This document shows, piece after piece, positions 12,460 through 55,342 of a DNA stretch of 64,000 nucleotides; position 1 is the stretch's first letter, and each line of letters opens with the position of its first letter. This DNA is from a virus, in the IMG/VR virus record IMGVR_UViG_3300028734_000011. The stretch is one strand, 5' to 3'. Made by a program: the position numbers and the translations under genes. The notes under the pieces were generated by a model. That model saw only the letters and a program-made list of their open reading frames with translations. It had not been told where the DNA came from and did no database searches.

Positions 12460-13260
12460 ATGAATAAAGAAGAATTAATACAAGTGTTTGAAGACACAAA
12501 ATTACACAGTGAATGTATGTTGAAATCAGAAACTACTATACATTCATTTGATGATAGATTAATGCCAGATATTAGCATTCCTTGTCATGAAAACATACAA
12601 GTTATAAATTCTGATAGTGTATCTGCAGTTACAGAATATAGTAAATTAGGAAAAACTTGTGTTCTTAATATGGCATCATTTAAACGTCCAGGTGGAGGAG
12701 TTGCAAAAGGGTCCAAAGCACAGGAAGAATGCTTATTTAGATGCTCAAATTTGATTCATTTAATTAATACTGATAATTATCCATTGAATGATGATAACGC
12801 ATTATACACTAAAGATGCCACATTTTTCAAGGATGTATATTATAATTATATGAATGACGTTCAATCTGATGTTGTAACTATTGCAGCATTAAATCTTAGA
12901 AATGTTGATATTAATAGTCATTCTGATACAATAACAAGTGAAAATATATCATCAATAAATTCTGATGGAATAACAATATCAAATTGGGATTATGAACAAC
13001 TTACTAAGGAAAAAATAAGATTGATGTTATCACTTGCAATTAAAAATGATGTTGATATTATAATTTTAGGCTCATTCGGATGTGGAGTTTTCAAAAATGA
13101 TCCTGAAAAAATGGCTAAAATATTCAAGAAATTATTAGTAAATGAAGGATATTCTAAATATTTTGAAAAAGTAATATTTGCGATTATCAATGACAATAAC
13201 TCAGTAGGTAATAATTATGAAATTTTCAAAAATGTTTTTAGTGATTATAATTTAATTTAA
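12460..13260 (+). CDS. bacterial-type poly(ADP-ribose) glycohydrolase-like macrodomain protein (DUF2263-like)
   Basis: FKRPGGGVAKGSKAQEE matches the PARG signature GGG-x6-8-QEE; a second Gly-rich loop LGSFGCGVFKNDP is typical of the macro fold. Confidence 0.6.
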   Translation: MNKEELIQVFEDTKLHSECMLKSETTIHSFDDRLMPDISIPCHENIQVINSDSVSAVTEYSKLGKTCVLNMASFKRPGGGVAKGSKAQEECLFRCSNLIHLINTDNYPLNDDNALYTKDATFFKDVYYNYMNDVQSDVVTIAALNLRNVDINSHSDTITSENISSINSDGITISNWDYEQLTKEKIRLMLSLAIKNDVDIIILGSFGCGVFKNDPEKMAKIFKKLLVNEGYSKYFEKVIFAIINDNNSVGNNYEIFKNVFSDYNLI

Positions 13261-23730: not shown

Positions 23731-23760
23731 CCATTAAATATGAATTGTGATTTTCTTTTT

Positions 23761-24813: not shown

Positions 24814-24816
24814 TTT

Positions 24817-24915: not shown

Positions 24916-24952
24916 TTTTAAATTATGATTTTTTACAATCACTTTTCATTTG

Positions 24953-25105: not shown

Positions 25106-25124
25106 GATAAATTTTAAAATATTT

Positions 25125-27362: not shown

Positions 27363-27658
27363 ACATTGAATTTATTTGTTTGCTTAATTAATTCCAATTT
27401 GTCTTCTAATATTTTTTTAACAGATGAATATTTAAATACATCTTTTTTATCAATCCAAAAACCATCTTCATGATAATAATCTTTAAAATCAATTTTATAT
27501 TGAGTTTTGCTTTTGTTTATTATTTGAAAAATATTATTACTTATTTTTGTTTTATATTGAATATCATAATTTATACCTTTAAGAACAGGTATAACGTAAT
27601 ATCCAATAGGTATTTCAATATCTTTAACAACGAATTCAAATGTTTTTATATATTTCAT
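27359..27658 (-). CDS. cassette-family protein (array 3)
   Basis: N-term MKYIKTFEFV, C-term TNKFNV. Confidence 0.55.
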   Translation of the reverse strand: MKYIKTFEFVVKDIEIPIGYYVIPVLKGINYDIQYKTKISNNIFQIINKSKTQYKIDFKDYYHEDGFWIDKKDVFKYSSVKKILEDKLELIKQTNKFNV

Positions 27659-28419: not shown

Positions 28420-30063
28420 ATGTTAAGATATGATGATTATAATAAATTAAATGAGGCTTTCTTTCATCGAAGTAAAGATGAGTTAGAAAACCTCATACAT
28501 TCTTTTAAAAGTTTGATTATAAATTTAAAACAATCAATAGACAAAAAATATACTTTAGATTTCTATAAAAATCAAATCAAAGAAGATTTAGAATCATATA
28601 AGAAAAGTCTATTGAACAATTATAATAAAACAACAATTATTAAATTTAAGGATTTATTCAAAGATTTTTTAAATAATGTTGATAACGATATAATTAGGCA
28701 CATGAGATTAAATAAATTTGCGAATGATATATTAAAAATATATTCAATTAACAATTCATTTGATATTAATATAAAGAATGTAGATAGTGTTTTTAAAGCA
28801 TATGCTGATAACGTAGATCGATATATAGACAGTACATATGAATTTTTTTATGACAAAATAGAGACTGACAAATCATATGAGCCTTATAATAAGATAGATA
28901 TAAAAATAAATAAAGTTCCTCTTGATGAATATCAAAAAACTAAATATAAATATCAAATAGAGTTATTAAAATTACAGGAATGGATTACATACAATAACAA
29001 AAAGGTATTAATAATATTTGAAGGTAGAGATGCTGCAGGAAAAGGATCTGCAATTAGAAATATTACTAGGTTTCTTGATCCAAAACATTATAGAGTACAA
29101 ACATTTGGTATTCCGTCAGAAGAAGAAAGTGATAATTGGTTTGAAAGATATGAAAAAGTTTTACCAAAAAATGGTGAAATTGTTTTCTTTGATAGATCTT
29201 GGTATACAAGAGGTTACGTTGAACCAGTGATGAAATATTCAACAGATGATAAATACAATAAATTCATGAAAGAAGTTAATAACTTTGAGGATAAATTAAT
29301 TGATGATGATATTATACTTATAAAAATATGGTTCTCTATATCTCAGGATGTTCAAAAAATGAGATTTGAATTAAGAAAATCCAATCCATTGAAATATTGG
29401 AAATTTAGTAAGAATGATGAGCAAACGTTAGATAAGTGGGATGAGTTCACTAAATACATAAATGACATTTTCAAAAAAACAAATACAAAAGAATCACCTT
29501 GGATAATAATAGATGCTGACGATGAGAATTATTCAAGATTAGAATCATTTAACAGTATAATAAAAACTATTGAAAAAGATAAAGATAATACTAAAGAAGG
29601 CGGAATAAAAGTTGTATTTGAAGATATTGATGGACCTCTTATTCCTTATGATAAAACATCTGATACTGATTATCATAAATTTTTTAATGATCCAGAAAAA
29701 TGGAGTAAAACTGCAATGAGCAATTTAAACAAAATAATAGAAAAAACAGATGCAAAAGTTGTATTATCATCTTCATATAGAGATGATAAACCTTTAAGTG
29801 AGATTGAAAAAATGATGAAAGATGCAGGGTTTAAATATAAAATTTATGATGTTGTTCCAAATGACAAATCAAAAAAACGTGGTTCTGATATAAAAGATTG
29901 GTTGAAGAACAACAAATTTGTTAGCAATTTTATAATTATTGACGATAATAAGCATGACTTATATGATGTGTTCAGTAAAAAACATATTGTTAAAACTACT
30001 CATGAATTAGGTATAACAGATAGTATTGTTGATGAAGCTATTGAAAAATTAAATACCAAGTAA
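28420..30063 (+). CDS. polyphosphate kinase 2 (PPK2) domain fused to C-terminal HAD-like phosphatase domain
   Basis: PPK2 Walker A IIFEGRDAAGKGSAI and Walker B/lid VFFDRSWYTRG; C-terminal ~150 aa carry VVFEDIDGPL (DxDG, HAD motif I), VLSSS (motif II), K...GSD and IIIDDN (motifs III/IV). Confidence 0.6.
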   Translation: MLRYDDYNKLNEAFFHRSKDELENLIHSFKSLIINLKQSIDKKYTLDFYKNQIKEDLESYKKSLLNNYNKTTIIKFKDLFKDFLNNVDNDIIRHMRLNKFANDILKIYSINNSFDINIKNVDSVFKAYADNVDRYIDSTYEFFYDKIETDKSYEPYNKIDIKINKVPLDEYQKTKYKYQIELLKLQEWITYNNKKVLIIFEGRDAAGKGSAIRNITRFLDPKHYRVQTFGIPSEEESDNWFERYEKVLPKNGEIVFFDRSWYTRGYVEPVMKYSTDDKYNKFMKEVNNFEDKLIDDDIILIKIWFSISQDVQKMRFELRKSNPLKYWKFSKNDEQTLDKWDEFTKYINDIFKKTNTKESPWIIIDADDENYSRLESFNSIIKTIEKDKDNTKEGGIKVVFEDIDGPLIPYDKTSDTDYHKFFNDPEKWSKTAMSNLNKIIEKTDAKVVLSSSYRDDKPLSEIEKMMKDAGFKYKIYDVVPNDKSKKRGSDIKDWLKNNKFVSNFIIIDDNKHDLYDVFSKKHIVKTTHELGITDSIVDEAIEKLNTK

Positions 30064-30067: not shown

Positions 30068-30472
30068 ATGAGATATATAAAAACATATGAAAGTATTGAA
30101 ACTTCATCAGATAATAAGATATTCATTATTTTTCTAAATAGTTTTATAACATCATTAGATTATAATATGAAATCAAATCATTCAAGTTCAAATTTAGAAT
30201 ATGATTTTTATTACTACAGTTCAAAATCTGAAAGATCAAAAAAATTATCAATTAGTACTGAGATAGAAGGAGATGATTTATTCATTAGTATATATAATGA
30301 GATGTTTAATATTATTGAAGAATATTTAGAAACTATTTATGGATTAAATTTAATAACATTTGAATCTCGTACATACAACTTTGAAATAAAAGGAAATATA
30401 TATGATGTAATGAGTCAGATAACAAAAGAAGATTTTTATTTAAAAAGAGAATCAAATAAATTTAACATATGA
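30068..30472 (+). CDS. cassette-family protein (first of array 4)
   Basis: N-term MRYIKTYESI, C-term SNKFNI. Confidence 0.55.
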   Translation: MRYIKTYESIETSSDNKIFIIFLNSFITSLDYNMKSNHSSSNLEYDFYYYSSKSERSKKLSISTEIEGDDLFISIYNEMFNIIEEYLETIYGLNLITFESRTYNFEIKGNIYDVMSQITKEDFYLKRESNKFNI

Positions 30473-30813
30473 AATATATAAAAACGTTTGAATCTAAAGG
30501 AATAGATTTATTCAAGGCTATCATAAATGACGATGAAAAATTAGTTAAAAAATTAATTAGGTTTAATGTAGACATAAATATTCAGGATATGGAAGGTCGT
30601 ACACCAATATTTTATGCTGCTAATCATGATTTTATGTCAATTGTTGAGATTCTTATTAAAGCAGGAGCAGATTGGAATATTATAAACAACAAAGGATATG
30701 ATTTTACATATTTGTTGAGTGACAAGCAACTTGAAATAATCAAGAAAAAATACCCAAATGAATATTCTGAATATTTATTAAAAAAAGAAGCTACAAACAA
30801 ATATAATTTATGA
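30469..30813 (+). CDS. cassette-family protein, ankyrin-repeat subtype
   Basis: N-term MKYIKTFESK, C-term TNKYNL; ANK (NVDINIQDMEGRTPIFYAANHDFMSIVEILIKAGADWNI). Confidence 0.65.
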   Translation: MKYIKTFESKGIDLFKAIINDDEKLVKKLIRFNVDINIQDMEGRTPIFYAANHDFMSIVEILIKAGADWNIINNKGYDFTYLLSDKQLEIIKKKYPNEYSEYLLKKEATNKYNL

Positions 30814-31238
30814 AACATTTAAAAATTTATGAGAATTATAAAGATAAAATGAAGTCAAAGAATAAGTTCAATGATATGATAAATAATTATATTCCAGGCT
30901 TTTATATGATATACAAATCTAATATTTATCATTGGAAATATGGTAAAATGAATAACTATTTAGCTTTGTGTAGAATTCTGGAGCCAACAGAATTTGATGA
31001 TGGAATAAGATTAAAAATTGATATAATTTCATATGTATGCGAAATAGATGAAATAGACTTGAAAAACTCAGAAAGAATAAATATAGGAATAAAATATTTA
31101 AATATTAACAGTGACACATTTGAAAGAGTTTTTTTATCATCATCATTAAAAACTGCTCAAGATAAATTTGAAGAATTGAAAAAAACTACTTGTTATCAAT
31201 GGGAGTTAAATAATATGACAAATAAATTCAATATATGA
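30810..31238 (+). CDS. cassette-family protein
   Basis: N-term MKHLKIYENY, C-term TNKFNI. Confidence 0.55.
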   Translation: MKHLKIYENYKDKMKSKNKFNDMINNYIPGFYMIYKSNIYHWKYGKMNNYLALCRILEPTEFDDGIRLKIDIISYVCEIDEIDLKNSERINIGIKYLNINSDTFERVFLSSSLKTAQDKFEELKKTTCYQWELNNMTNKFNI

Positions 31239-31621
31239 AAACATTCAATCAATTCTATGAATCTATAAAAAACAAATATTTTTCTATATATTTCAGAAGA
31301 TATTATGAATCAGGTAGACATAATATATCAGATATATATTACGACATTGAACAAGCAAATAGATATAACATTGAATATGTTCTATTTAATAATACCACTA
31401 AAGGAGATGAGTTTTTTTACTTATATTTATTTCCATGTAATGAATATGAATATAAAATTATTAGTTCTGAGTTAATTGGTATGTTTAATATATCAAGTAT
31501 AACTAATGTAGATTTAAAAAAAGAAGAAAATATAGAATTAATAAAAAATAATAAAAATGCTAATATTATAAATTTAGAAGATGTAAATTTAATAATAAGC
31601 TCTAAAAAATTTAATATATGA
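31235..31621 (+). CDS. cassette-family protein (variant N-terminus)
   Basis: N-term MKTFNQFYES, C-term SKKFNI. Confidence 0.5.
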   Translation: MKTFNQFYESIKNKYFSIYFRRYYESGRHNISDIYYDIEQANRYNIEYVLFNNTTKGDEFFYLYLFPCNEYEYKIISSELIGMFNISSITNVDLKKEENIELIKNNKNANIINLEDVNLIISSKKFNI

Positions 31622-31977
31622 AAACATTTATACAATTTAATGAAATGAGTAATGTTGGTTGTACTGTATTTTTCAAAGTATATTTTAAACTTGAAAATAT
31701 CTATAACCATCTTGATATATTAGATAAAAATAGAATAGATTATGATATATCTTATCATAATAAATTCATTAAAATAGATGCTTATGCATATACGGTAAGT
31801 GAATATAATTTTCTTATCTCAATTGAGTTCAAAATAAATAAAAAGTCACAAGAACTAATAAATCCAAATATGTCACTTGATAATATTAGAAGTATTGTAA
31901 AATCAGATAAAGTTTGGACACCAACAAGTAAAGAAGAATTACCATATCTATCAGATACAAATAAATTTAATTTATGA
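31618..31977 (+). CDS. cassette-family protein (variant N-terminus)
   Basis: N-term MKTFIQFNEM, C-term TNKFNL. Confidence 0.5.
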   Translation: MKTFIQFNEMSNVGCTVFFKVYFKLENIYNHLDILDKNRIDYDISYHNKFIKIDAYAYTVSEYNFLISIEFKINKKSQELINPNMSLDNIRSIVKSDKVWTPTSKEELPYLSDTNKFNL

Positions 31978-32357
31978 AATACTTAAAAAAGTTTGAAAGT
32001 AGAGAGATATCAATAGATCCATATTTAAAAAAAATATATGTATCAAATAACGATTTTACTGATTTATATGATGAAATTAAAACTCTAACTAATTATAAAT
32101 TTGATTTTGAATTATATTATAGAGTAGATGAAAAATACATATTCAATATTATAGTATTTATTAAATCTAATGAGTATACAATGAGTAAATCTATGCATTA
32201 TTATGGTTATATACGTTATGATACATTAAAATCCCATATTAACACATCAGATGCAAATATTATGAAAAACTATTTAAATGAGTTAACAGATTGGACTCAT
32301 ATTAATAATAAAAATGATATTGAAACTGAAATCACTGCAAATAAATTTAATATATGA
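31974..32357 (+). CDS. cassette-family protein
   Basis: N-term MKYLKKFESR, C-term ANKFNI. Confidence 0.6.
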   Translation: MKYLKKFESREISIDPYLKKIYVSNNDFTDLYDEIKTLTNYKFDFELYYRVDEKYIFNIIVFIKSNEYTMSKSMHYYGYIRYDTLKSHINTSDANIMKNYLNELTDWTHINNKNDIETEITANKFNI

Positions 32358-32872
32358 AATACTTAAAAAAATATGAAAAATATGATGCATCTTTAGATTT
32401 GAATTATATATTAGATAGCGAAGTATATTCAGATTCTGATGCTATAAAATTATTAGAAAAGGTGAGATACGCTATTGATAATGATTGTGTTATTGATGAT
32501 ATAAATGTTCATTGGCTTGATAGAACACCTTTAATCGTGTGTTCGATTTCAGAGTGTCATATAAATAATAAAAGTTCTAATTATATTCATATATATAAAC
32601 AAATAGCAAAAGAATTAATAGATGCAGGAGCAAATATAGATTTAGTTGATCATGATGGTAGAAGTGCATTGATATGGGCAGCATCAAGAAAACATTTTGA
32701 TGTGATGGAATTATTAATTGAAGAAGGAGCAAATTGGAATATTCGTGATATATATCATTATGAATTTCATGAATATTTAACAAATGATGAATCAAAAAAA
32801 ATCATGAATAAATATCCTGATAAAAGTGAATTATATACTACTAAAAAAATAGCTAATAAATTTAACTTATGA
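32354..32872 (+). CDS. cassette-family protein, ankyrin-repeat subtype
   Basis: N-term MKYLKKYEKY, C-term ANKFNL; ANK (LIDAGANIDLVDHDGRSALIWAASRKHFDVMELLIEEGANWNI). Confidence 0.65.
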   Translation: MKYLKKYEKYDASLDLNYILDSEVYSDSDAIKLLEKVRYAIDNDCVIDDINVHWLDRTPLIVCSISECHINNKSSNYIHIYKQIAKELIDAGANIDLVDHDGRSALIWAASRKHFDVMELLIEEGANWNIRDIYHYEFHEYLTNDESKKIMNKYPDKSELYTTKKIANKFNL

Positions 32873-33360
32873 AACATATAGTTACATATACTCAGAAAGA
32901 ATTAAATTCTGAATTATTGGAATATTCAGAAAATAAAGCATCAACACAGAAAGTAAGAGAATTGATATTAGATGGTGCTGATGTAAATTGTTTTGATGCT
33001 AGTAAAAGTAGGACACCGTTAATTAAAGCAGTATTAAAATTAAATTACAGTATAATTAAATTATTAATTGAAAATAATGCTGATGTTAATTTAACAAATA
33101 GATTTAATGAAACTTGCTTATTTTTTATTACTCATAATGGTAATTATACATATAAAATATTAAAAAAAAATATTGATAATATTATTGATTTATTAATGAA
33201 ATCTGGAATTGATATGAAAATTGAAAATTTAAAGGGTGAAGATATATTTAGTAAAATTGATACATCAAATCCTATAATATTACAACATATAATAGAAACC
33301 TATCCTGAAAGATATAAAGAATATTTAATGAAAAAAACCGCAAATAAATTCAACATATGA
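32869..33360 (+). CDS. cassette-family protein, ankyrin-repeat subtype
   Basis: N-term MKHIVTYTQK, C-term ANKFNI; ANK (LILDGADVNCFDASKSRTPLIKAVLKLNYSIIKLLIENNADVNL). Confidence 0.65.
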   Translation: MKHIVTYTQKELNSELLEYSENKASTQKVRELILDGADVNCFDASKSRTPLIKAVLKLNYSIIKLLIENNADVNLTNRFNETCLFFITHNGNYTYKILKKNIDNIIDLLMKSGIDMKIENLKGEDIFSKIDTSNPIILQHIIETYPERYKEYLMKKTANKFNI

Positions 33361-33719
33361 AGCACATAAAAACATTTGAAAATAATAAAGACGTACCAAA
33401 AGAGGGTGATTATGTATTAATTAATGCAACAAGTGATATTTACACTGGATTTAAAGTTAATGAATTTATAAATTATATAAATAATCATATAGGTAAAGTA
33501 GTTTCTAAAACATGGGATTATGATCATAATGATATTAGAGTAATTTATGAAGATATGACATATAAAGAAGATAAAGAAATTGGAACATGGTTTGGCTATT
33601 ATAAAGATGGAGATAAATTCATACATTCAAAAGATTTTAAATATTCTCAAGTTAAATTTTATCACAAAAATAAAGATTATTTAGAACAAATGTTGAATGT
33701 TCAAAAATTCAATTTATAA
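33357..33719 (+). CDS. cassette-family protein, GDYV subtype (last of array 4)
   Basis: MKHIKTFENNKDVPKEGDYVLI... C-term VQKFNL. Confidence 0.6.
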   Translation: MKHIKTFENNKDVPKEGDYVLINATSDIYTGFKVNEFINYINNHIGKVVSKTWDYDHNDIRVIYEDMTYKEDKEIGTWFGYYKDGDKFIHSKDFKYSQVKFYHKNKDYLEQMLNVQKFNL

Positions 33720-34028: not shown

Positions 34029-34211
34029 ATGTATAAAACATTAGATATAATAAATAAAACAATTTTATTTTTCGCTTTGATTTGGTTAGCGTTATCATTA
34101 TGCGTAATAATTTTATTATCATTAATTAAAACTTTTTTAAAAATAACATATAACTCAATTAAGAATAAATTTAAATCAAAAAATGAAAAAAACATTACTG
34201 TGGCTAGATGA
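34029..34211 (+). CDS. small membrane protein (uncertain)
   Basis: 60-aa hydrophobic ORF. An antisense ORF 33977..34225 also exists, so coding strand is uncertain. Confidence 0.25.
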   Translation: MYKTLDIINKTILFFALIWLALSLCVIILLSLIKTFLKITYNSIKNKFKSKNEKNITVAR

Positions 34212-34521
34212 TTCTCGTGATCCATTAGAAAATGATTGGCTAGTTTTTAGCCCAATAGGAAGAGATGTTGATGTGAATTGGGTGACAACCCAAATGGAAT
34301 TTGAAGATTGGATAATGATTAATGGATTACCTGATGGTATATGTTTTGATCATGACTTAGGTACAGGCAATGGGGATGGATATGAATGTGCCAAATGGCT
34401 ATGTAGATACTGTGACAACAAAAGTTTAAAGATACCTTTATATGCTATGCAATCAGCTAATACAGTAGGTCGAGAAAATATTGATTGCTATTTAAAGAAT
34501 TACATGAAGCATTGTTATTAA
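34183..34521 (+). CDS. receiver (REC/CheY)-like domain protein (tentative)
   Basis: LLWLDDSRDP (acidic pocket DD), ICFDHDLG (putative phospho-acceptor Asp), YAMQSAN (conserved S/T position) resemble a response-regulator receiver fold; no output domain. Confidence 0.35.
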   Translation: MKKTLLWLDDSRDPLENDWLVFSPIGRDVDVNWVTTQMEFEDWIMINGLPDGICFDHDLGTGNGDGYECAKWLCRYCDNKSLKIPLYAMQSANTVGRENIDCYLKNYMKHCY

Positions 34522-34769: not shown

Positions 34770-35492
34770 TTATTTTTGAAATGAAGGTTTCAGCCACATC
34801 TTAGTATGATTAAATACATAATCTCTCAAAGTAGGAAATTCATTTAATACTAATATTGTTTTCAATGTATCAAATTTGAAACACTTAGTAAGTTCATCTT
34901 GAATTCTTTCACTTGAAACTACTTTCATTTTTGATTCATAATCATAATTTTTGATAGCAATTTCAATTTCATCAGTCATTCTGAATCCTTTTGTAATACA
35001 AAATCTCACACATCTTAAGATTCTTAGGGAATCCTCATCAAATGTAAGCTCACAAGGTCTTGGTGTTCTAAGAATTCCCATTTTAAGGTCTTTAACTCCA
35101 TCAAACAAATCAATCAATGTACCATTTTCATCAAGTGCCATCGCATTTAATGTGAAATCACGTCTGATTAAATCATCTTCAAGAGTACCAAGTTCTAAAA
35201 TTGGACGTCTTGTACCTTCATAATAACCAATTTCCTTTCTTGCCATTACAAAGTCTGCAGTCAAACCGTCATGTTTATGACCCTTTGGAAATTTTGCTTT
35301 AATTGTAAAACATCTTGGCGTTGAATTATAAATAGTATAACCATTTTTACGTAGCCATAACTCCATATCCATGAATCCAGATTCAACAGATTGATTCTTA
35401 TCATCCAATACAAAAGTAAAGTCAATGTCCTTACAATCAACTCCTAAGATACGGTCTCTGACCGCTCCACCTACTTCATAAATTTTTGGCAT
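34770..35492 (-). CDS. tRNA nucleotidyltransferase (CCA-adding) / poly(A) polymerase family head domain protein
   Basis: Class II nucleotidyltransferase motifs: YEVGGAVRDRILG, DIDF (metal-binding DxD), RRDFTLNAMA; 240 aa, head/neck only. Confidence 0.7.
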   Translation of the reverse strand: MPKIYEVGGAVRDRILGVDCKDIDFTFVLDDKNQSVESGFMDMELWLRKNGYTIYNSTPRCFTIKAKFPKGHKHDGLTADFVMARKEIGYYEGTRRPILELGTLEDDLIRRDFTLNAMALDENGTLIDLFDGVKDLKMGILRTPRPCELTFDEDSLRILRCVRFCITKGFRMTDEIEIAIKNYDYESKMKVVSSERIQDELTKCFKFDTLKTILVLNEFPTLRDYVFNHTKMWLKPSFQK

Positions 35493-36270: not shown

Positions 36271-37209
36271 TTAGAAAAAATTAGAGGCATCAACATATTT
36301 AAAGCCACATCGTTTAGCGAATGTTTTATCACTTGTCAAATCTCCAACCATTATACATTGTGATGGATCAAGTTTATATTTCTCAATGAATTCAACTCCA
36401 AAGCCAACTCCTGGCTTTCTACAATAGCAAGTGATTGGAGGAACAGAGTGCCCGCAATATTTATAATCAATATTAACTCCTAACATTTCATTTGTCTTTT
36501 CAAAACATTCTATTGCAGTCTCATGAGTTAATAATCCTTTTGCTATACCACTTTGATTTGAAACACCAAGTAATATATAACCTTGACTCTGTAATTCTAA
36601 AAGTTTTTCTGTTCTACCAGGAATTATTTCAATATCACTAATATCTGTTGGATAATGTCCTCCACTTTTCGTTAATCTCAAAGTGCCGTCATAATCAAAG
36701 AAGATTGCTTTATTTTTATACTCTGATGGATATCTTTTGAAATCTATTTTTTCTATATCATCAATACCTTCTGATAATTCTGGTGTTTCAAAATGTTTAT
36801 TCATTTTATAAAGTGCAGCTACAGGAAACATATGTGGATCATTAACTTTAGAATAATCACTTAATTCTGTAAATAATCTATCATATTTTCTTATCATTCT
36901 TGTTACCTGATTGAACATACAATCTTCAATCTTTGTGGTGAAATAAAGGCAAATTATATAGTAGTCATATTTTTTTGCTAATTCAATAACTTCAGAACGA
37001 GATAACTTAGTTGTATATGTACCATCTAATACAATATCAACACCATCTATCATCAGTGCTTCAAGTTTCTTATTAAGTGAAATTAATGTACCACCTTCAA
37101 TATCTCTTGATAATAAGGTGTAATTATAATCAACATAAGATTCAACAATACCTGATTTACCTGCAGCAGGTAATCCACAAGTCATAACTAATCTTTTTTC
37201 TTCTTTCAT
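36271..37209 (-). CDS. pnk: polynucleotide 5'-kinase / 3'-phosphatase (T4 Pnk-like)
   Basis: N-terminal P-loop kinase VMTCGLPAAGKSG; C-terminal HAD phosphatase with IFFDYDGTL (DxDGT), LGVSNQSG, CRKPGVG, MVGDLTSD. Domain order kinase-then-phosphatase as in T4 Pnk. Confidence 0.8.
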   Translation of the reverse strand: MKEEKRLVMTCGLPAAGKSGIVESYVDYNYTLLSRDIEGGTLISLNKKLEALMIDGVDIVLDGTYTTKLSRSEVIELAKKYDYYIICLYFTTKIEDCMFNQVTRMIRKYDRLFTELSDYSKVNDPHMFPVAALYKMNKHFETPELSEGIDDIEKIDFKRYPSEYKNKAIFFDYDGTLRLTKSGGHYPTDISDIEIIPGRTEKLLELQSQGYILLGVSNQSGIAKGLLTHETAIECFEKTNEMLGVNIDYKYCGHSVPPITCYCRKPGVGFGVEFIEKYKLDPSQCIMVGDLTSDKTFAKRCGFKYVDASNFF

Positions 37210-42451: not shown

Positions 42452-42787
42452 ATGAAATATTTAAAAACATTTGAAATAAATAATAAATTAGAAATTGGTG
42501 ATTATGTAATATGTGAATGGTATGATGGTAAATATAATAATACATATAAAGAATTTAATGATTTCATTAAAAATAAGGTAGGAAAACTTATTGATATTGA
42601 TTATAAATTAATACCAGGTGCTACATATTATATAGTTGAATATGATCATATTCCAGATAATTTAAATAATTTCAAGAGATATAAAAATGAATCTGCATTT
42701 ACTATGAAAGGAGCAGATATAGTTAGATATTCAAAAGATAAATCAGAATTAGAAATTTCTATTAATACAAATAAATTTAACCTATGA
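42452..42787 (+). CDS. cassette-family protein, GDYV subtype (first of array 5)
   Basis: MKYLKTFEINNKLEIGDYVIC... C-term TNKFNL. Confidence 0.6.
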   Translation: MKYLKTFEINNKLEIGDYVICEWYDGKYNNTYKEFNDFIKNKVGKLIDIDYKLIPGATYYIVEYDHIPDNLNNFKRYKNESAFTMKGADIVRYSKDKSELEISINTNKFNL

Positions 42788-43098
42788 AATATATAAAAAA
42801 TTTTGAAAAAATAAATAATACAATTCATTATAAAATTCCAGCATATCCGTTAGAAGCATATTTTATTGCACTAACTAAAATTGGTATGTCACAAGATGAA
42901 ATATCAAATTGGAGTAGTAATAAATTAGCTCAATATTGGAATAATTCAAATTTTAAATTTATATATTTAGATCACATATACAATGATTATACTAAAAAAT
43001 ATCAATGGAGTTGGTCAAATAGAATAAATGTAAATCAAACTGTAAGAGAAATAACTGTTGACGATTATGAAATTGATGCAAAGAAATTTAACATATGA
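42784..43098 (+). CDS. cassette-family protein
   Basis: N-term MKYIKNFEKI, C-term AKKFNI; near-identical to the next gene (KIPAYPLEAYFIALTKIGMSQDEIS..). Confidence 0.6.
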   Translation: MKYIKNFEKINNTIHYKIPAYPLEAYFIALTKIGMSQDEISNWSSNKLAQYWNNSNFKFIYLDHIYNDYTKKYQWSWSNRINVNQTVREITVDDYEIDAKKFNI

Positions 43099-43400
43099 AA
43101 TATATAAAAAAATTTGAAAAGATAAATATTAAAAAAATTCAATATAAAATTCCATCATACCCGTTAGAAGTATATTTTATTGCACTAACTAAAATAGGTA
43201 TGTCAACAGATGAAATATCAAGTTGGAGTAATAATACGCACTCTCAATATTGGAATAACCCACATTTTAAATTTATATATTTAAATCACTCATTAATCTA
43301 TAACAGTTGGAGTTGGTCAGATAAAATAAATGTAAATAAAACTGTAATAGAAATAACTGTTGAAGATTATGAAATTGATGCAAACAAATTTAACATATGA
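43095..43400 (+). CDS. cassette-family protein (recent duplicate of 42784..43098)
   Basis: N-term MKYIKKFEKI, C-term ANKFNI; KIPSYPLEVYFIALTKIGMSTDEIS.. Confidence 0.6.
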   Translation: MKYIKKFEKINIKKIQYKIPSYPLEVYFIALTKIGMSTDEISSWSNNTHSQYWNNPHFKFIYLNHSLIYNSWSWSDKINVNKTVIEITVEDYEIDANKFNI

Positions 43401-43762
43401 AATATATAAAGAAATTTGAAAATGATACTAATGAGACTGAAGTAGGAGATTATGTGTCAATAGTAAGTAAAAATTATATTAATCATTTGAAAAATCACTA
43501 CGATGAAAAATATCTTGATTTGTTAAAAGATTTTTTTCTTAATTGTCCTGGACAAATATATACTACTTTTAATAACAACAAAATAAAGGTTATATATGGT
43601 TTTGATATTCCAAAAAATGTAAGAGAATTTTTTCAATATGATAAAAATTATGGCTACAATCAAATATTTTATTTAGAAGATATAAACTTATTAGCAAAAA
43701 CAAAAGATGAATTGAAAAATAAAATAGAAATTCAAAATAATTCAAATAAATTCAACCTATGA
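43397..43762 (+). CDS. cassette-family protein, GDYV subtype
   Basis: MKYIKKFENDTNETEVGDYVSI... C-term SNKFNL. Confidence 0.6.
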   Translation: MKYIKKFENDTNETEVGDYVSIVSKNYINHLKNHYDEKYLDLLKDFFLNCPGQIYTTFNNNKIKVIYGFDIPKNVREFFQYDKNYGYNQIFYLEDINLLAKTKDELKNKIEIQNNSNKFNL

Positions 43763-44070
43763 AGTATATAAAATCATTTGAAATTAACAAACTAAATATT
43801 AATATAGGAGATTATGTTAAAATAAAAATAATTCCTGATTATGTGGAGAGAGTAGAAAAAATACCAGATAATTTATTTGTCAAAATAATAGAAATAACTC
43901 TATTGGAGAATCATAATAATGAAGATAAAGATAACATAGTTATTACATTTGAAACATTAATCACTAAGCAAAAAATAACTGGTAATATATATTTTATTTC
44001 AAGAAAAATGACTAAATCAGAAATAGATTATTGTAAGACTAAATCAGAAACAAATAAATTTAACTTATGA
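43759..44070 (+). CDS. cassette-family protein, GDYV subtype
   Basis: MKYIKSFEINKLNINIGDYVKI... C-term TNKFNL. Confidence 0.6.
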   Translation: MKYIKSFEINKLNINIGDYVKIKIIPDYVERVEKIPDNLFVKIIEITLLENHNNEDKDNIVITFETLITKQKITGNIYFISRKMTKSEIDYCKTKSETNKFNL

Positions 44071-44360
44071 AGTACTTGAAAAAATTTGAAGATATAGAAA
44101 ATACTCCAGACGTAGGTGACTATATAATTCCTAATGTAGAAACTCTTAATGCTGTTATTAATGATAAAATTAATAATAATATATTTCAAATAATTGGAAC
44201 GAGACAAAGAAAAATAGGGAAGATTTTATATATCATTAAATTTAAATTAGAAAACCATATTGATGATAATTGGTATTTAGATGTATCTGAGATAAAACAT
44301 ATTTCAAAAAATAAAGAAGAATTAGAAATATTATTACAATCAAAAAAATATAACATATGA
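44067..44360 (+). CDS. cassette-family protein, GDYV subtype
   Basis: MKYLKKFEDIENTPDVGDYIIP... C-term SKKYNI. Confidence 0.6.
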   Translation: MKYLKKFEDIENTPDVGDYIIPNVETLNAVINDKINNNIFQIIGTRQRKIGKILYIIKFKLENHIDDNWYLDVSEIKHISKNKEELEILLQSKKYNI

Positions 44361-44683
44361 AACATTTGAAACAATTTGAAGCTACTGAAAATAACCCAAT
44401 TGTTGGTGATTATGTTATTATGAATATTAAAAAGATGAAATATTTTCATTCTGATTTAGATGAATTATTAAATGAATATATAAACAATTCAATTGGTAAA
44501 ATTTATGATATATACAATGGAGGTGTTTTTGTAAAATATAACAAAATTCCTTCAAATTTGAAAAAATTATTTTATGACGGTGTTGATAATGATATGCTGA
44601 GATTTGAAATGAATGATATTTTATATTTTGGAGATAAAAATGAAATGGAAAAAATACTATCAGCAAAAAAATTTAACTTATGA
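44357..44683 (+). CDS. cassette-family protein, GDYV subtype
   Basis: MKHLKQFEATENNPIVGDYVIM... C-term AKKFNL. Confidence 0.6.
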   Translation: MKHLKQFEATENNPIVGDYVIMNIKKMKYFHSDLDELLNEYINNSIGKIYDIYNGGVFVKYNKIPSNLKKLFYDGVDNDMLRFEMNDILYFGDKNEMEKILSAKKFNL

Positions 44684-45018
44684 AATATATAAAGACATTT
44701 GAAAATAAAGAAACAATACCAGAAATTGGTGATTATGTTATACTGAATGTAAAAAATTTAAAATTTAGTGATCCTAACTCATATAAAAATAAAAATTATA
44801 TAAGAATATTTACTAATAATGTATATAAAATAATTGGTGATAATAGTGAATACTCTCCAAAATATACAAGTAAATTCCCATCTTCAGTATATACAATTAA
44901 TTTTTATGATAAAACTCATCCTGATGGATGGGATATCTATTATGAGGATATACTATTTTATGATAAAGATGAAGAAGTTGTTAAATATAAAAATATAGCA
45001 AATAAATTTAACTTATGA
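44680..45018 (+). CDS. cassette-family protein, GDYV subtype
   Basis: MKYIKTFENKETIPEIGDYVIL... C-term ANKFNL; close paralog of the next gene. Confidence 0.6.
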   Translation: MKYIKTFENKETIPEIGDYVILNVKNLKFSDPNSYKNKNYIRIFTNNVYKIIGDNSEYSPKYTSKFPSSVYTINFYDKTHPDGWDIYYEDILFYDKDEEVVKYKNIANKFNL

Positions 45019-45314
45019 AATACTTAAAAAAATTTGAAAATAATAATGATGAACCAAGAATTGGCGATTATGTTGTTCTGAACACAAAAAATTTAAATTT
45101 TAGTGATCCAGAGATAGGTGATCATTATAGAAAAATATTCACTGATAATGCATATAAAATAATAAATTATTATAGTGGCTCAGCATACATGATTGATTTT
45201 TATGATGAAAATCATCCTAATGGATGGAATGTTTATATAGAAGATATATTGGCATTTGATAAAGATAAGAATGTTGTTAAATATAAAAATAATATAAATA
45301 AATTCAACTTATAA
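45015..45314 (+). CDS. cassette-family protein, GDYV subtype (last of array 5)
   Basis: MKYLKKFENNNDEPRIGDYVVL... C-term INKFNL then TAA. Confidence 0.6.
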   Translation: MKYLKKFENNNDEPRIGDYVVLNTKNLNFSDPEIGDHYRKIFTDNAYKIINYYSGSAYMIDFYDENHPNGWNVYIEDILAFDKDKNVVKYKNNINKFNL

Positions 45315-46215: not shown

Positions 46216-47109
46216 ATGAAAGATTTAGAATTAAAAAAATTAGTACATTCAACTATTGACAACACAATCAAGTATATTTTTTATACAGAGGATAAATTAA
46301 TAATTGAATTTTCTTATATCAATAAGAATGATGGTAAAAATATTATTTGCTGTCCAGTTTCAACATTTTGCTCAATAGGATGCAAATTTTGTCATACAGC
46401 AGAATATGTTGGTAAAATTAAAAATAGAAATCTAACATCATTTGAAATTTCTAATGGAGTTAATTATATTTATAATGATTTAAAATTATCTGAAAACCCA
46501 AAAACTTTATTAATAAGTTTCATGGGTATTGGTGAAATTGTAACAAATGTTGATGAAGTTGTAGAATCAATGATAAATATTCAAAATACTTATCTGAAAG
46601 ATATATACGTTAGATTCGCATTTGCAACATCTTTACCTGAATCTCACAGTATTGAATTTTTCAAATTAACAAATAAAATAGCTAAAAACAATTTGCCTGT
46701 TAAGTTGCATCTATCTTTACATTATACTACAAATGAGCAGAGAGTTCAGTGGATGCCAAGATCAATGAAAATTGAACCGACCATTGCAGCAGTAGATTAT
46801 TATAAATCTATGACAGGAAATAGTGTTGAAATACATTATGCTCTAATAGAGAATGTAAATGATAAATCAGAAGATGCTATGAGATTAACTAATCTTATTA
46901 AAGACAAAGGATTTGATGTTAAATTTTTATTCTATAACAAGAAAGATAATATAGACGCTGAACCATCAAACATTTCTAAAATTAAAGTATTTTCAGATAT
47001 ATTTAGTCTTGTTGGAATTAAACATGAATATTACATACCTCCTGGACTAGAAATTGGAAGTTCTTGTGGGTTACTATCCATAAATGAGTATATTAAAATA
47101 AAAGATTAA
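46216..47109 (+). CDS. radical SAM enzyme, RlmN/Cfr-like (tentative)
   Basis: CPVSTFCSIGCKFCHTAEY contains CxxxCxxC with a CKFC.T context resembling RlmN (..GCxLxCKFCxT); 297 aa. Confidence 0.5.
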   Translation: MKDLELKKLVHSTIDNTIKYIFYTEDKLIIEFSYINKNDGKNIICCPVSTFCSIGCKFCHTAEYVGKIKNRNLTSFEISNGVNYIYNDLKLSENPKTLLISFMGIGEIVTNVDEVVESMINIQNTYLKDIYVRFAFATSLPESHSIEFFKLTNKIAKNNLPVKLHLSLHYTTNEQRVQWMPRSMKIEPTIAAVDYYKSMTGNSVEIHYALIENVNDKSEDAMRLTNLIKDKGFDVKFLFYNKKDNIDAEPSNISKIKVFSDIFSLVGIKHEYYIPPGLEIGSSCGLLSINEYIKIKD

Positions 47110-50638: not shown

Positions 50639-51184
50639 TTAAAATTTTGTAGTCCATTTTGGATTAGGTAAATAATTTTCCTCTTCATATTTTTTCAATA
50701 AATTATAAAGTGGTTCCCAATCTGAATCTGGAAAAAACGCTGCCTTATCATCTAGGATCACGTTGAAATACATTTTTTGTTCATAGAAACCAAAATTTCC
50801 ATTATTCGATGAGATGTTTGGATTTTCATTTATATTATCAAAATGAATATAATTATTATCAAATTCTTTGATATAATTATCAATTTCATTTTGATATGAT
50901 GATGTCCACATTATAATATGAATATCATTTCTTGCTGTTAATAATTGTAATACTTCTTTTGCAAAAGGATAAAACTCAAACTGATTATCATTTAAGTTAT
51001 AACTGGATTTTATTACAGTTGAATGTAAATCTATAACCCAATAAGTTGTGTACCATTCTTTTTTAAAAGAATTGGTAAACACCTTATCAATATATTTAGT
51101 CATAGAAGTAGTTAATAATTCGTCAAACATTTTATTATTTATTATCAGGTTCAAATTCATTTTTAAGTTCAAGAAATCTTTCAT
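50639..51184 (-). CDS. HAD-like hydrolase (possible 5'(3')-nucleotidase; tentative)
   Basis: VIDLHSTV (motif-I-like) and VILDDKA (DD motif). True start may be an internal Met, since it overlaps the upstream gene by 50 nt. Confidence 0.3.
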   Translation of the reverse strand: MKDFLNLKMNLNLIINNKMFDELLTTSMTKYIDKVFTNSFKKEWYTTYWVIDLHSTVIKSSYNLNDNQFEFYPFAKEVLQLLTARNDIHIIMWTSSYQNEIDNYIKEFDNNYIHFDNINENPNISSNNGNFGFYEQKMYFNVILDDKAAFFPDSDWEPLYNLLKKYEEENYLPNPKWTTKF

Positions 51185-51467
51185 ATCTATTTTTTTTCAA
51201 TAAATCTTTAGATTTCTGTGTTTCTATCATTCTCTTATTGTACTGTTCATCTGTTTCTTCTATCATTCTATTAACCTCTAAATAGAAATATCCATCATGC
51301 TCATAATCAGTTGTACACATAGGTTCTATGTATTCAATATTTATGATATCATCATCCTGAAATTGTAAATGTTTCAAGTCTTTCCATGTGATATAGTTAT
51401 CTAAATGCTTAGTAAAGATAGTTTTTTCAATTTTCAATTTTTTCATAATGTTATTCAAATGGTTCAA
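51135..51467 (-). CDS. hypothetical protein
   Basis: 110-aa ORF. Confidence 0.4.
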   Translation of the reverse strand: MNHLNNIMKKLKIEKTIFTKHLDNYITWKDLKHLQFQDDDIINIEYIEPMCTTDYEHDGYFYLEVNRMIEETDEQYNKRMIETQKSKDLLKKNRYERFLELKNEFEPDNK

Positions 51468-51858
51468 TAATTTTTTTTATATATTTAACTGGTATATCAA
51501 CCTCACAACACAAATGATTTCTATTAGATGACATATCTTGATCTGAAAAACTATCATCATAAAAAATGATACCATCTTTAATCAATTCTTGGGTATCTAT
51601 TGCAACTATATATGAATCATCATAATATCTAAACATATCTCCAGTAGTATGGGTTATAGGATATGAAAAAAATAGCATTCCTGTCTCAACAATTGATTTA
51701 TATTGCGGTTGATTAATTTTTAGTCCATCAATTTTAATATTCTCAATTCTATCTTTAGTAGTTACATGATACAAGACATCATATTTACTAATATCATGAA
51801 GATTAAACTCTTCTTCAAAAGTTTCACCACTAAAAAATGATACAAATTTCTTTTTCAT
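51451..51858 (-). CDS. hypothetical protein with Tpt1/KptA- or ART-fold-like N-terminal motif (speculative)
   Basis: YDVLYHVTTKDRIENIKIDGLKI resembles the LYHGT...I..GL.. opening of RNA 2'-phosphotransferase / DarT-like ADP-ribosyltransferases; 135 aa is short for either. Confidence 0.25.
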   Translation of the reverse strand: MKKKFVSFFSGETFEEEFNLHDISKYDVLYHVTTKDRIENIKIDGLKINQPQYKSIVETGMLFFSYPITHTTGDMFRYYDDSYIVAIDTQELIKDGIIFYDDSFSDQDMSSNRNHLCCEVDIPVKYIKKIIEPFE

Positions 51859-53249: not shown

Positions 53250-53432
53250 TTATTTTATAGTTTCTTTCGATCCATATCTTGTTCCGTTAACACCAATCAT
53301 TATTTCTAAAAATGGTGTGATATGTAATGAATAAGTGTTTAATTTATCATTAATTTTTGTTTTACTAACTCCAATTAAGTATGGAATTATTCTATAAAAA
53401 TTTGTACTAATATTACCTTTATAATTTGTCAT
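53250..53432 (-). CDS. hypothetical protein
   Basis: 60-aa ORF. Confidence 0.3.
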   Translation of the reverse strand: MTNYKGNISTNFYRIIPYLIGVSKTKINDKLNTYSLHITPFLEIMIGVNGTRYGSKETIK

Positions 53433-53442
53433 GTTTTATTAT

Positions 53443-53676
53443 TTATTTATTAATCAATGATTGTCTTGATACTACATCCATTGTAGCACTCATACAATTT
53501 ATTATCATTTCAAGTCCAAATTCAGTTTCATTTTGTATTTCAGTTGCTAACTCACGTCTGGAATATGTATTTACTCCACAACACATATAAACTACATCTA
53601 AATCACGTGGAGAATTCATTAAATTGTCAATCAATCCGTTTTTTAACTTCAATGATAGTTCATTTATCTTTTCCAT
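53443..53676 (-). CDS. hypothetical protein
   Basis: 77-aa ORF. Confidence 0.35.
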   Translation of the reverse strand: MEKINELSLKLKNGLIDNLMNSPRDLDVVYMCCGVNTYSRRELATEIQNETEFGLEMIINCMSATMDVVSRQSLINK

Positions 53677-54044
53677 TTTATTATTTTATCTTTTTTATAA
53701 TCATTTAAGTATTTTTCAATATATTTCAATTCTATACTTTCAAAAATCACAAATATTGAATTATTATATTCTTTAATGTTTAAGGAGATATCTAAACATT
53801 CTAATTTCTTCATTCTTAAATAAGATTCAATATTTTTAACACTGGTATTTTCAAGAATGTTTTTTATTTTTTGTAATTTAATATTTAGTTCATTAAGCTT
53901 ATTAGAAATCTCTGTACAATCATCATCCGCTATACTCCAATATAATGCTCCACCCATCATATTTCTGATTTCACATGCTTTATCTAAATTTCTCTGACCT
54001 TCTTCAATTGTGTCAAATATTAATAAATCTGTGGATAAATTCAT
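53664..54044 (-). CDS. hypothetical protein (translationally coupled downstream of NadD)
   Basis: 126 aa; ATGA overlap with the NadD stop/start at 54044. Confidence 0.4.
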   Translation of the reverse strand: MNLSTDLLIFDTIEEGQRNLDKACEIRNMMGGALYWSIADDDCTEISNKLNELNIKLQKIKNILENTSVKNIESYLRMKKLECLDISLNIKEYNNSIFVIFESIELKYIEKYLNDYKKDKIIKWKR

Positions 54045-54661
54045 TATTTATATAAATTATGTATATGAATATATTTCTCAACTGATGATGGTACAAAGAT
54101 ACTAATATCTTCTGAATTCGCAATAAGATTTCTAATTTTTGTTGAAGATAAAGATGATATTTTAAAATCACTCAAAAAAACAGTATCATTATTTATAATT
54201 ACATTATTACTAAGTAATTCTGATTTTTTATACACAAAACATTTTTCATTTGTTTCATTATCAAAATCTCTTGGTAATACAATAAAAGGATATTTTTCAC
54301 ATATAACTTTATAGTTTTTCCATTTGTCTATATCTAACCAAATATCCAACCCCATTATCATATAATACTTAGTATCTGGATTTGATAAACTTAATGAGTT
54401 TAATGCATTTATTGTATATGATGGTAAAGGTAAGTACTGTTCAACTGTATTAACTGTAATGTTAATATAAGGTTCTACTGATAAACCGCACATTTTACAT
54501 CTATCTTTATAATCAGCCAAATCATGTTTAAAAGGATTTTGTGGAGAAACAACCAATTGTACTTCATCAATATAATTTAGCTTAGATATATTCTCAGCTA
54601 TCTTAATATGAGTATTATGACAAGGATTGTAGCTACCAAAAAATAGTGCGACATTTTTCAT
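54044..54661 (-). CDS. nadD: nicotinate/nicotinamide mononucleotide adenylyltransferase (NadD-type)
   Basis: N-terminal (H/T)xGH nucleotidyltransferase motif FFGSYNPCHNTH; C-terminal ISSLSSTKIRNLI matches the NadD ISST.IR motif; 205 aa. Confidence 0.75.
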   Translation of the reverse strand: MKNVALFFGSYNPCHNTHIKIAENISKLNYIDEVQLVVSPQNPFKHDLADYKDRCKMCGLSVEPYINITVNTVEQYLPLPSYTINALNSLSLSNPDTKYYMIMGLDIWLDIDKWKNYKVICEKYPFIVLPRDFDNETNEKCFVYKKSELLSNNVIINNDTVFLSDFKISSLSSTKIRNLIANSEDISIFVPSSVEKYIHIHNLYK

Positions 54662-54662
54662 A

Positions 54663-54872
54663 TTATTTTCTTAATCCTAAATATTCATCAAATGCATGAA
54701 CCCAAGCTAAAGCATCTTCTTCATATGATGTATCTGGATCATAATAATCCAATTCTATTTTCATTGACATATCATCAGAAAATATCAAATCATATTTTGC
54801 ATTCCAACTCAAGTCAGAATTTATAATTTCATGAGCTTCTGAGTTTAAATCTATTAACGCTCCTATTTTCAT
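54663..54872 (-). CDS. hypothetical acidic protein
   Basis: 69-aa ORF. Confidence 0.35.
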   Translation of the reverse strand: MKIGALIDLNSEAHEIINSDLSWNAKYDLIFSDDMSMKIELDYYDPDTSYEEDALAWVHAFDEYLGLRK

Positions 54873-54877
54873 AATAC

Positions 54878-55108
54878 TTATTTTATTTCTATTTTTACTT
54901 TATAATAATGATTTTCTAATCCAGCATTTTTTAATGCATTATAAATTTTCATAGCTTCTTCTTCATGATCATATGAAGTAAAAACTTCTATTTCAATCTT
55001 AGCCTTACCTTCTAATTCTCCACCTTTTATCCAAAGTTCCCTAGAATTATGATTTAAAACTTTCAACTTATCATTTTTGTCAATATAAAAACTATCTGAA
55101 TTCGCCAT
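54878..55108 (-). CDS. hypothetical protein
   Basis: 76-aa ORF. Confidence 0.35.
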   Translation of the reverse strand: MANSDSFYIDKNDKLKVLNHNSRELWIKGGELEGKAKIEIEVFTSYDHEEEAMKIYNALKNAGLENHYYKVKIEIK

Positions 55109-55111
55109 AAT

Positions 55112-55342
55112 TTATTTTTTATTTTTACAATTAATAATAATATTTGCAATTAACATGATAAATAAAACAATAGAAATAGTAATAATAAATGATAAGATAG
55201 CTAATTGTGTAAAGCTATACGGAGATTTACTAACTGTAGATAATACAAAAAATCCAAGCCATGTTGTTAATATACTATATTTTACCTCAAACATAATAGC
55301 CAAATTTCTATATAAAAATTTTTTCATAATATTATTTTTCAA
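55112..55342 (-). CDS. small membrane protein
   Basis: 76 aa, two TM helices; first of three tandem small hydrophobic proteins. Confidence 0.4.
   Translation of the reverse strand: MKNNIMKKFLYRNLAIMFEVKYSILTTWLGFFVLSTVSKSPYSFTQLAILSFIITISIVLFIMLIANIIINCKNKK

Follow-up and report, generated by a model that had tools for sequence, protein, structure and literature searches.

Genes for the synthesis of nicotinamide adenine dinucleotide (NAD+) in jumbo phages were described in 2024 in the form of pncB-nadD-nadE clusters, e.g., in Kuafu_71 ([quoted passage not shown], Microbiome 2024, PMC11662467). The same paper reports a 735-kb phage with a single nadD, read by its authors as boosting the rate-limiting step, and cites work in which nadD overexpression raises NAD+ synthesis. 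Considered here is another solitary nadD, found in a 64,000-nt stretch of DNA from the IMG/VR virus record IMGVR_UViG_3300028734_000011 (this whole stretch is called the window below). A sequence-only reading of the window had proposed that the gene might replenish NAD+ against NAD+-depleting defences. With nadD already published from jumbo phages in 2024, the present case is an expected auxiliary metabolic gene and not a new anti-defence system.

As in the 735-kb phage (PMC11662467), a single NadD-type adenylyltransferase is encoded in a huge phage without a complete salvage pathway. The two are not close: the NadD of the 735-kb phage (LR756501/LR756503) is 29% identical to the present one by tblastn, and the clade described here is of a different lineage, T4-like, with about 23% G+C and Bacteroidota-type promoter elements. 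The Preiss-Handler clusters (PMC11662467) are similar in that phage NadD serves as a NAD+ biosynthetic auxiliary gene, but there nadD is flanked by pncB and nadE, whereas here its neighbors are small open reading frames (ORFs) of unknown function, and no pncB or nadE domains were found within ±10 kb of nadD in the window or in two related contigs (L016 and L018).

Three phage pathways that restore NAD+ have also been described: NARP1 (Adps and Namat) and NARP2 (Nampt and a KVP40-type Nmnat), in which 94% of phages with a Nampt homolog also encode a KVP40-type Nmnat (bioRxiv 10.1101/2024.02.11.579819), and NARP3 (a PnuC-like transporter and a NadR-like enzyme; PMC13464706). NadD is mentioned in neither paper. 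Like the present gene, NARP2 (KVP40 NadV/Nampt and NatV/Nmnat) ends in the adenylyltransferase step yielding a pyridine dinucleotide, and it is found in large T4-like phages. The KVP40 Nmnat, however, is of NadM type and carries a fused Nudix domain, whereas the present enzyme is NadD-type, and no Nampt was found in the ~81 kb of window and flanks or in ~109 kb of tiles (sampled fragments of sister genomes, described below). NARP1 and NARP3 are phage-encoded routes that raise cellular NAD+, as is proposed for the present gene; unlike NARP1, there are no adjacent Adps or Namat genes in the window or three orthologous loci, and the enzymes and chemistry differ, and unlike NARP3, the PnuC and NadR-like families were not detected in the window, flanks, or tiles. 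Bacteroidota housekeeping NadDs (Chitinophagales, Mucilaginibacter, Bacteroidales) share family, motifs, and similar length with the phage enzyme, but at 35–41% identity, and the phage copy is surrounded by tiny phage ORFs and belongs to a clade of its own.

The nadD gene and its phage

Sequence comparisons confirm the nadD ORF (Table 1) as a genuine NadD-family gene with both catalytic motifs intact, as the sequence-only reading had held. Its product matches the NCBIfam equivalog TIGR00482 ("nicotinate (nicotinamide) nucleotide adenylyltransferase") over its full length, residues 6–204 against model positions 1–194 of 194, with 133.8 bits relative to a trusted cut-off of 112.45. It also matches Pfam CTP_transf_like (PF01467) at 6e-15, and each of its 15 sequence matches in the PDB is a NadD enzyme. 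The top-scoring models are without exception those of NadD; other nucleotidyltransferase models in NCBIfam score far below (e.g., CoaD, 46 bits), with those of NadM/NadR type at 14–26 bits. Relative to bacterial NadD there is an insertion of ~15 aa (205 aa vs. about 190). No Nudix domain and no PHROG family were found for the protein, and near the gene there was neither an NAD+ riboswitch nor any further cis-regulatory RNA.

Table 1. Positions of nadD and other features in the 64,000-nt window (strand relative to the sequence as presented)
Feature	Position	Strand	Remarks
nadD, NadD-family nicotinate/nicotinamide mononucleotide (NaMN/NMN) adenylyltransferase, 205 aa	54044..54661	-	ATG-to-TAA ORF, exact coordinates
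HxxH nucleotidyltransferase motif, H15-N-T-H18 in GSYNPCHNTH	54608..54619	-	Aligns with GTFNPVHLAH of 8aih and GQFNPIHTAH of 2h29 (solved NadDs)
SxTxxR motif, S172-S-T-K-I-R177	54131..54148	-	Aligns with SSTKIR of 8aih and SSTMIR of 2h29
ORF of 126 aa, no NAD enzyme signature	53664..54044	-	Directly downstream of nadD
Candidate Bacteroidota-type -7 promoter element TACTTTTG	55823..55830	-	29 nt upstream of ATG at 55794
Predicted polycistronic unit of ~nine small genes	53250..55830	-	Three predicted membrane proteins, two unknowns, nadD, three unknowns; spacing 0-10 nt or overlaps
Microbial-type PARG/macro-domain protein (ADP-ribose-removing type)	12460..13260	+	PF10021 (PARG_cat_microb) 2e-19; TIGR02452 115.9 bits vs. 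cut-off 50
Predicted ADP-ribosyltransferase-fold protein like NAD+-binding lobe of Tpt1/KptA, 135 aa	51451..51858	-	AlphaFold (AF2) model and Foldseek
GOLLD RNA, complete (Rfam RF02032)	21681-22103	-	274.8 bits vs. gathering score 150, model 1-416/416; start of ORF-poor stretch
tRNA-like element	60932-61030	-	Rfam tRNA 36.8 bits, E 1.9e-6 locally; missed by ARAGORN
MKYIK(K/T)FE paralogs	5725-9409, 17545-21587, 26641-27658, 30068-33719, 42452-45314 and elsewhere in window		

Comparisons with related contigs identify the source of the window as a T4-like huge phage, neither a bacterial chromosome nor an endosymbiont. The window itself has a G+C content of 21–27% and 150 closely packed ORFs (mean 125 aa, 89% coding density), many of them overlapping the next by 1–4 nt; long runs of such overlaps point to a prokaryotic polycistronic organization. 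When 22 kb of the window was compared with 50,697 phage records by Megablast, nothing matched. The identical NadD protein is found on >20 metagenomic contigs, the longest 177.6 kb, and orthologs at 83–86% identity are found on eight IMG/VR viral contigs of 181–330 kb and one 326-kb JGI contig (3300029998 Ga0302271_10000001); IMGVR_UViG_3300029983_000007, of 330 kb, is another contig with an ortholog. A contig overlapping the right end of the window carries the T4-specific Pfam domains Phage_30_3 and T4_Y16D just outside it, as well as an Rnl-type RNA ligase with a PHA02142 domain, and the same two T4 domains flank an ortholog of about 67–68% NadD identity. Among the proteins from pooled fragments of related contigs are a gp32-type ssDNA-binding protein, Caudoviral tail protein, tail lysozyme, thymidylate synthase, and dUTPase; these are not assigned to source contigs, and some of the fragments come from unrelated phages. 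No close relative was found among 185,579 species-representative bacterial and archaeal genomes. The viral backbone suggested by the sequence-only reading is thus borne out by the T4-family domains, the long IMG/VR relatives, and the lack of a close cellular relative, and the orthologous contigs and T4-family markers place the phage among the huge or jumbo phages with nadD, taken as those with a NadD-family gene on a genome >200 kb.

There are 1386 NadD homologs, nearly all of NadD length and with PF01467. In a neighbor-joining tree, built without support values, ten phage proteins at 68–100% identity and one at 46% form a monophyletic clade on a long branch. The nearest cellular NadDs are about 35–41% identical, and those with names are all from Bacteroidota (Chitinophagales, Mucilaginibacter, Bacteroidales, Ferruginibacter). 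The best of them (P0012, 41%) is on a bacterial chromosome, beside a nuo operon. Clustering with the housekeeping NadD of an endosymbiont, which the sequence-only reading had named as the outcome that would speak against it, was therefore not found.

The position of nadD is syntenic in three contigs whose NadDs are 86, 83, and 67% identical in amino acid sequence, and the corresponding ratios of nonsynonymous to synonymous substitution (dN/dS) are 0.18, 0.21, and 0.33, values which are approximate since dS is 0.5–1.0 in an AT-rich genome and so near saturation. The gene is among the best conserved of its block, where many neighbors are 45–65% identical. By these comparisons nadD is a long-resident phage gene under purifying selection.

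The host is probably a member of the Bacteroidota, judging from promoter motifs and the taxonomy of the NadD homologs. TAnnTTTG is the Bacteroidota-type -7 promoter element. It is ~5-fold enriched in sense orientation upstream of genes, with 21 copies in 4.2 kb of upstream intergenic DNA as compared to eight antisense and ~1 per kb window-wide; the copies concentrate between -27 and -49 relative to the ATG, and often read TATCTTTG. Given what is established about Bacteroidota promoters, this enrichment points to a Bacteroidota host. A sigma-70 promoter scan of the window did no better than on shuffled sequence. One of these elements, TACTTTTG, is the probable start of the nadD transcription unit (Table 1), which is bounded by gaps of 73 nt upstream (55795–55867) and 196 nt downstream; no intrinsic terminators were found. 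The junction between nadD and the ORF downstream reads AAA TAA TGA ATT, so that TAA and ATG share one base (TAATG), and not the four of the ATGA overlap given in the sequence-only reading.

Partner genes and other NAD+ or ADP-ribose proteins

This downstream ORF had been put forward as a candidate partner of nadD, and profile searches gave it no enzyme family: it has no match in Pfam, NCBIfam, or PHROG. A word-indexed search found it in its own lineage only, while in an exhaustive HMMER search of 1.84 billion representatives its N-terminal ~65 aa alone resemble an unnamed family of 60–80-aa proteins. Its AlphaFold (AF2) model consists of helices throughout, with low confidence (pLDDT 55). It is weakly constrained, at 62, 55, and 47% identity to its orthologs and with dN/dS of 0.33–0.49, and in three relatives (L016, L017, and L018) a different 103-aa ORF sits between nadD and its homolog. 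It has no significant paralog in the window (best blastp E-value 0.022). On the grounds of small size, lack of a family match, weak conservation, and the intervening ORF in relatives it was rejected as a pathway partner; it is too small for NAMPT, Namat, or Adps, and has no Nudix box.

Nearly all window ORFs of at least 45 aa were screened against Pfam, concatenated in chunks or singly, two chunks consisting nearly wholly of MKYIKKFE-family and ankyrin paralogs being left out. Overlapping contigs extended the sequence by 10 kb at the right end and 7.5 kb at the left, for about 81 kb of window and flanks. For the sister genomes, the alignment of the paralog family was too divergent as a locus query, and IMG/VR was scanned instead with AAATTTAAYHTATGAAAYAYHTHAA, the DNA junction motif of the tandem "MKYIKKFE...KFNL" paralogs, giving 107 fragments (the tiles). 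ORFs of at least 140 aa in these, minus those represented in the window, formed 192 families, nearly all of them scanned with Pfam (a few overlapping or already annotated ORFs were omitted). Batch scans took in the best 25 families per batch; in batch A5 these were the best 25 of 28, the other three all being weaker than 4e-9. The tiles cover 41% of the best-covered NadD-bearing contig and, pooled over seven near-identical contigs, ~109 kb non-redundant of a genome of roughly 220–256 kb.

In the window, Pfam matches included a microbial PARG (12460–13260), an HD domain (13270–14022), an NAD-dependent epimerase (14178–15047), Endonuclease_NS, PPK2 fused to HAD_SAK_2, cREC_REC, a CCA/poly(A)-polymerase head domain, a Pnkp-like kinase-phosphatase, MgtC, an RlmN/Cfr-like radical-SAM protein, Metallophos, ankyrin repeats, and a cold-shock domain. 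No NAMPT/NadV, PncB, NadE, NadR/NadM, PnuC, Prs/Adps, Nudix, SIR2, or LigA was found in this screen, in agreement with the earlier statement that no partner is seen in the window. Nor was there an NAD-synthesis partner in the two flanks or around the orthologs, an NAD-synthesis enzyme among the tile ORFs of at least 140 aa, or a Prs- or NAPRTase-family match near nadD in the window or three orthologous loci.

Several candidates were tried and rejected. A NadE candidate found as a regular-expression match to the PP-loop (SGGVDS) is a Fib_succ_major-domain protein. A second PF01467 protein, in the tiles, is not an NMN adenylyltransferase but an RfaE domain II heptose-1-phosphate adenylyltransferase (207 bits vs. 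a cut-off of 181.5). A Nudix protein resembling the ADPRase domain of NadM-Nudix (L065) is on contigs without similarity to the window. The lineage does have a Nudix hydrolase of its own, of 203–207 aa, on five NadD-bearing sister contigs; its similarities, to MutT and YffH/AdpP-type enzymes, are weak and non-specific, and it was not counted as a partner for this reason.

Two further proteins that the sequence-only reading had connected with NAD+ or ADP-ribose chemistry fared better. The bacterial-type PARG/macro protein was recovered by both a Pfam and an NCBIfam model (Table 1). The possible ADP-ribosyltransferase (ART) or Tpt1 fold of the 51451–51858 product is supported by a confident AF2 model (pLDDT 84, from a 13-sequence alignment), for which Foldseek ranks Tpt1/KptA structures of the PDB first (E about 1e-4, TM 0.50–0.56), ahead of pierisin, DarT, and cholera-toxin ARTs. 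Matches to profile hidden Markov models (HMMs) are weak (Pfam PTS_2-RNA 0.014, 15.9 bits vs. a cut-off of 26; NCBIfam 18.9 vs. 239; phrog_5470 1e-4) and extend over profile positions 81–180 only, the C-terminal NAD+-binding lobe of Tpt1. The protein is therefore not counted as a canonical Tpt1/KptA, being below the HMM cut-offs and lacking the N-terminal RNA lobe with its catalytic Arg-His-Arg. Its conservation is strong (dN/dS 0.11–0.14), and from its modeled fold it is likely to be a user of NAD+ within the nadD gene block.

A set of RNA-repair genes is also present: PPK2 fused to a "Swiss-army-knife" HAD (HAD_SAK), a cREC_REC cyclic-phosphate receiver, a Pnkp-like kinase-phosphatase, and the Rnl-type RNA ligase (28420–30063, 34183–34521, and 36271–37209; L013 768–1772, just outside the window). 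A CCA-adding enzyme is seemingly split, with its head at 34770–35492 (-), corresponding to TIGR02692 positions 30–220, and its HD C-terminal half ~20 kb away at 13270–14022 (+), corresponding to positions 217–461. Judging from family and fold assignments, the phage looks equipped for RNA repair and NAD+-consuming chemistry, with ART-fold, Pnkp-like, CCA-adding, cREC, PPK2-HAD_SAK, and RNA ligase proteins.

Proposed role of the phage NadD

The reading preferred here, with moderate confidence, is that NadD is a phage auxiliary metabolic gene product which would boost the NAD+ pathway of the host, in a T4-like huge-phage lineage whose nadD is probably Bacteroidota-derived. It is based on the family membership and intact motifs of the protein, on the purifying selection and conserved position of its gene, on the viral context, and on the lack of any partner in the examined regions. 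The gene would have been captured long ago from a bacterium by T4-like huge phages, probably Bacteroidota-infecting ones, with a Bacteroidota housekeeping nadD as the likely source. It would be expressed from a multi-gene unit of small genes, presumably of early type, and its product would convert NaMN and ATP to nicotinate adenine dinucleotide (NaAD) and pyrophosphate, and possibly also NMN to NAD+. Flux through the adenylyltransferase step of the host pathway would be raised, with host enzymes presumably supplying the earlier step (PncB or NadC) and the later one (NadE, amidation of NaAD). NAD+ may thereby be kept available in the infected cell for its consumers, including the phage's own Tpt1/ART-fold protein encoded 2.2 kb downstream.

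Some points weigh against this. The absence of an NAD-pathway partner anywhere in the genome, which the sequence-only reading had listed as a possible refutation of its own proposal, holds for about half a genome and, in the tiles, for ORFs of at least 140 aa; there may be a distant partner. One additional copy of the enzyme for a single step may change little where that step does not limit flux in the host, and the NAD+ users proposed to benefit are predicted from fold or family only.

A dedicated counter-defense role, with NadD rebuilding NAD+ after attack by Thoeris, DSR, or SIR2-type NADases, together with host PncA/PncB/NadE or an undetected phage partner, seems unlikely, even though NAD+ depletion is a common defense and phages do carry NAD+-restoring pathways (bioRxiv 10.1101/2024.02.11.579819; PMC13464706). 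The ADP-ribose-related proteins of the genome, i.e., the PARG-like macro and ART-fold proteins and the Nudix protein of the five sister contigs, would suit such a role, but the Nudix matches are only weak MutT-like and AdpP-like ones. The three validated pathways are all two-component with other enzymes, none of which was found in the examined regions, and a NaMN-specific NadD starting from nicotinamide would need three further host steps. The stable synteny of nadD in diverged relatives, while its neighbors turn over, is also unlike typical accessory anti-defense cargo.

A one-step recycling of NMN would need no partner at all, if the enzyme preferred or accepted this substrate (NMN + ATP to NAD+), with NMN coming from NAD-dependent ligation or host salvage. 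A lone adenylyltransferase would then suffice, the solitary state is the one observed, and the name of TIGR00482 covers both "nicotinate (nicotinamide)" forms. Characterized bacterial NadD enzymes, however, strongly prefer NaMN, which makes this quite improbable. Recycling for an NAD-dependent ligase in particular is unsupported: LigA was not found in the screened regions, and one of the tile proteins has the domain of an ATP-dependent DNA ligase.

It is very doubtful that the NadD scaffold has been turned to adenylylating some other substrate, e.g., a sugar phosphate or RNA-repair intermediate. The long branch of the clade and the ~15-aa insertion could be taken as signs of such a change, and RNA-repair and heptose-pathway genes do occur in the lineage, but the NadD equivalog is matched at full length and above its cut-off with other models far lower, and a bona fide RfaE-domain-II heptose adenylyltransferase exists in the lineage besides NadD. 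That the window is instead a piece of an AT-rich bacterial or endosymbiont chromosome with a housekeeping NadD, as its very low G+C content and bacterial-type genes (PPK2, MgtC, epimerase) might suggest, is effectively refuted by the small mean ORF size and absence of ribosomal or other housekeeping genes in the window, the T4-specific domains, the IMG/VR viral contigs, the lack of a relative among the species genomes, and the low identity to the nearest chromosomal NadD.

Other features of the lineage, and implications

Beside the GOLLD RNA is a region of ~3 kb (22104–25124) with no ORF of at least 80 aa on either strand, even with TAG or TGA read as sense; at E ≤ 0.1 nothing else in Rfam matches there. 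Possible readings are a large non-coding RNA not described before, a continuation of the GOLLD transcript, and a region serving replication or packaging. The tRNA-like element has good acceptor, D, and T arms, with an insertion of ~26 nt in or after the anticodon arm, and its anticodon is not readable. The stop codons of the 150 ORFs are TAA in 95 cases, TGA in 54, and TAG in one, and over the whole window the TAG trinucleotide is about half as frequent as TGA; there was no sign of TAG recoding within the window.

The paralog expansion used for the tile scan consists of proteins of 100–190 aa that start with MKYIK(K/T)FE and end with (N/K)KFN(L/I), some of them with ankyrin repeats. Tandem paralogs overlap by ATGA, and the junction DNA AAATTTAAYHTATGAAAYAYHTHAA occurs ~25 times in the window. 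In IMG/VR it matches mostly contigs from the lineage of this phage, apart from a few unrelated AT-rich phages matched by chance. Two AT-rich IMG/VR contigs matching the motif, L034 and L062, are weakly related to the NadD phage (one shared homolog), and encode a protein of 803 aa that contains shoulder and repeat domains of the major vault protein (MVP_shoulder 3e-27, Vault_3 3e-9; L034 5997–8405, L062 1862–4264).

The RlmN/Cfr-like radical-SAM RNA methyltransferase at 46216–47109 (+) scores 124.5 bits with TIGR00048, below the cut-off, and its conservation in relatives is 91%; the relative of 326 kb has an IS605 OrfB/TnpB (Cas12f-like) gene inserted beside it (L016 16465–17925). Pieces of an ADP-heptose-type sugar-nucleotide pathway are scattered through the lineage: an epimerase, a HAD phosphatase, a SIS (GmhA-like) protein, and the RfaE-domain-II adenylyltransferase (14178–15047, 50639–51184; L022 777–1352; L093 8344–8829). 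The epimerase at 14178–15047 is closest to the ADP-glyceromanno-heptose 6-epimerase model. The pooled tile fragments (alignment A7) also have genes for translation initiation factor IF3, complete with its two domains, and for a ClpP protease, neither of them assigned to source contigs.

What is new here is the addition of an environmental, T4-like, probably Bacteroidota-infecting huge-phage lineage to the carriers of nadD, and the observation that a lone nadD can stay under purifying selection at a fixed position while its neighbors turn over. A bolder idea, to which only a low probability is given, is that the solitary NadD is a minimal single-gene device for NAD+ restoration which makes use of host salvage, accompanied by a dispersed ADP-ribose toolkit (PARG-like, Tpt1-like ART-fold, and Nudix proteins). 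This could rest on NMN or dual specificity, or on the adenylyltransferase step limiting NAD+ recovery after NADase attack. If true, phages would have a fourth, NadD-based strategy to counter immunity by NAD+ depletion in their Bacteroidota hosts, and if NMN is accepted the enzyme would be a compact, one-gene NAD+ regenerator. The lineage offers a test case for a question raised by the NARP pathways, whether a single phage-supplied step of the host pathway can raise NAD+ or overcome a defense that depletes it.

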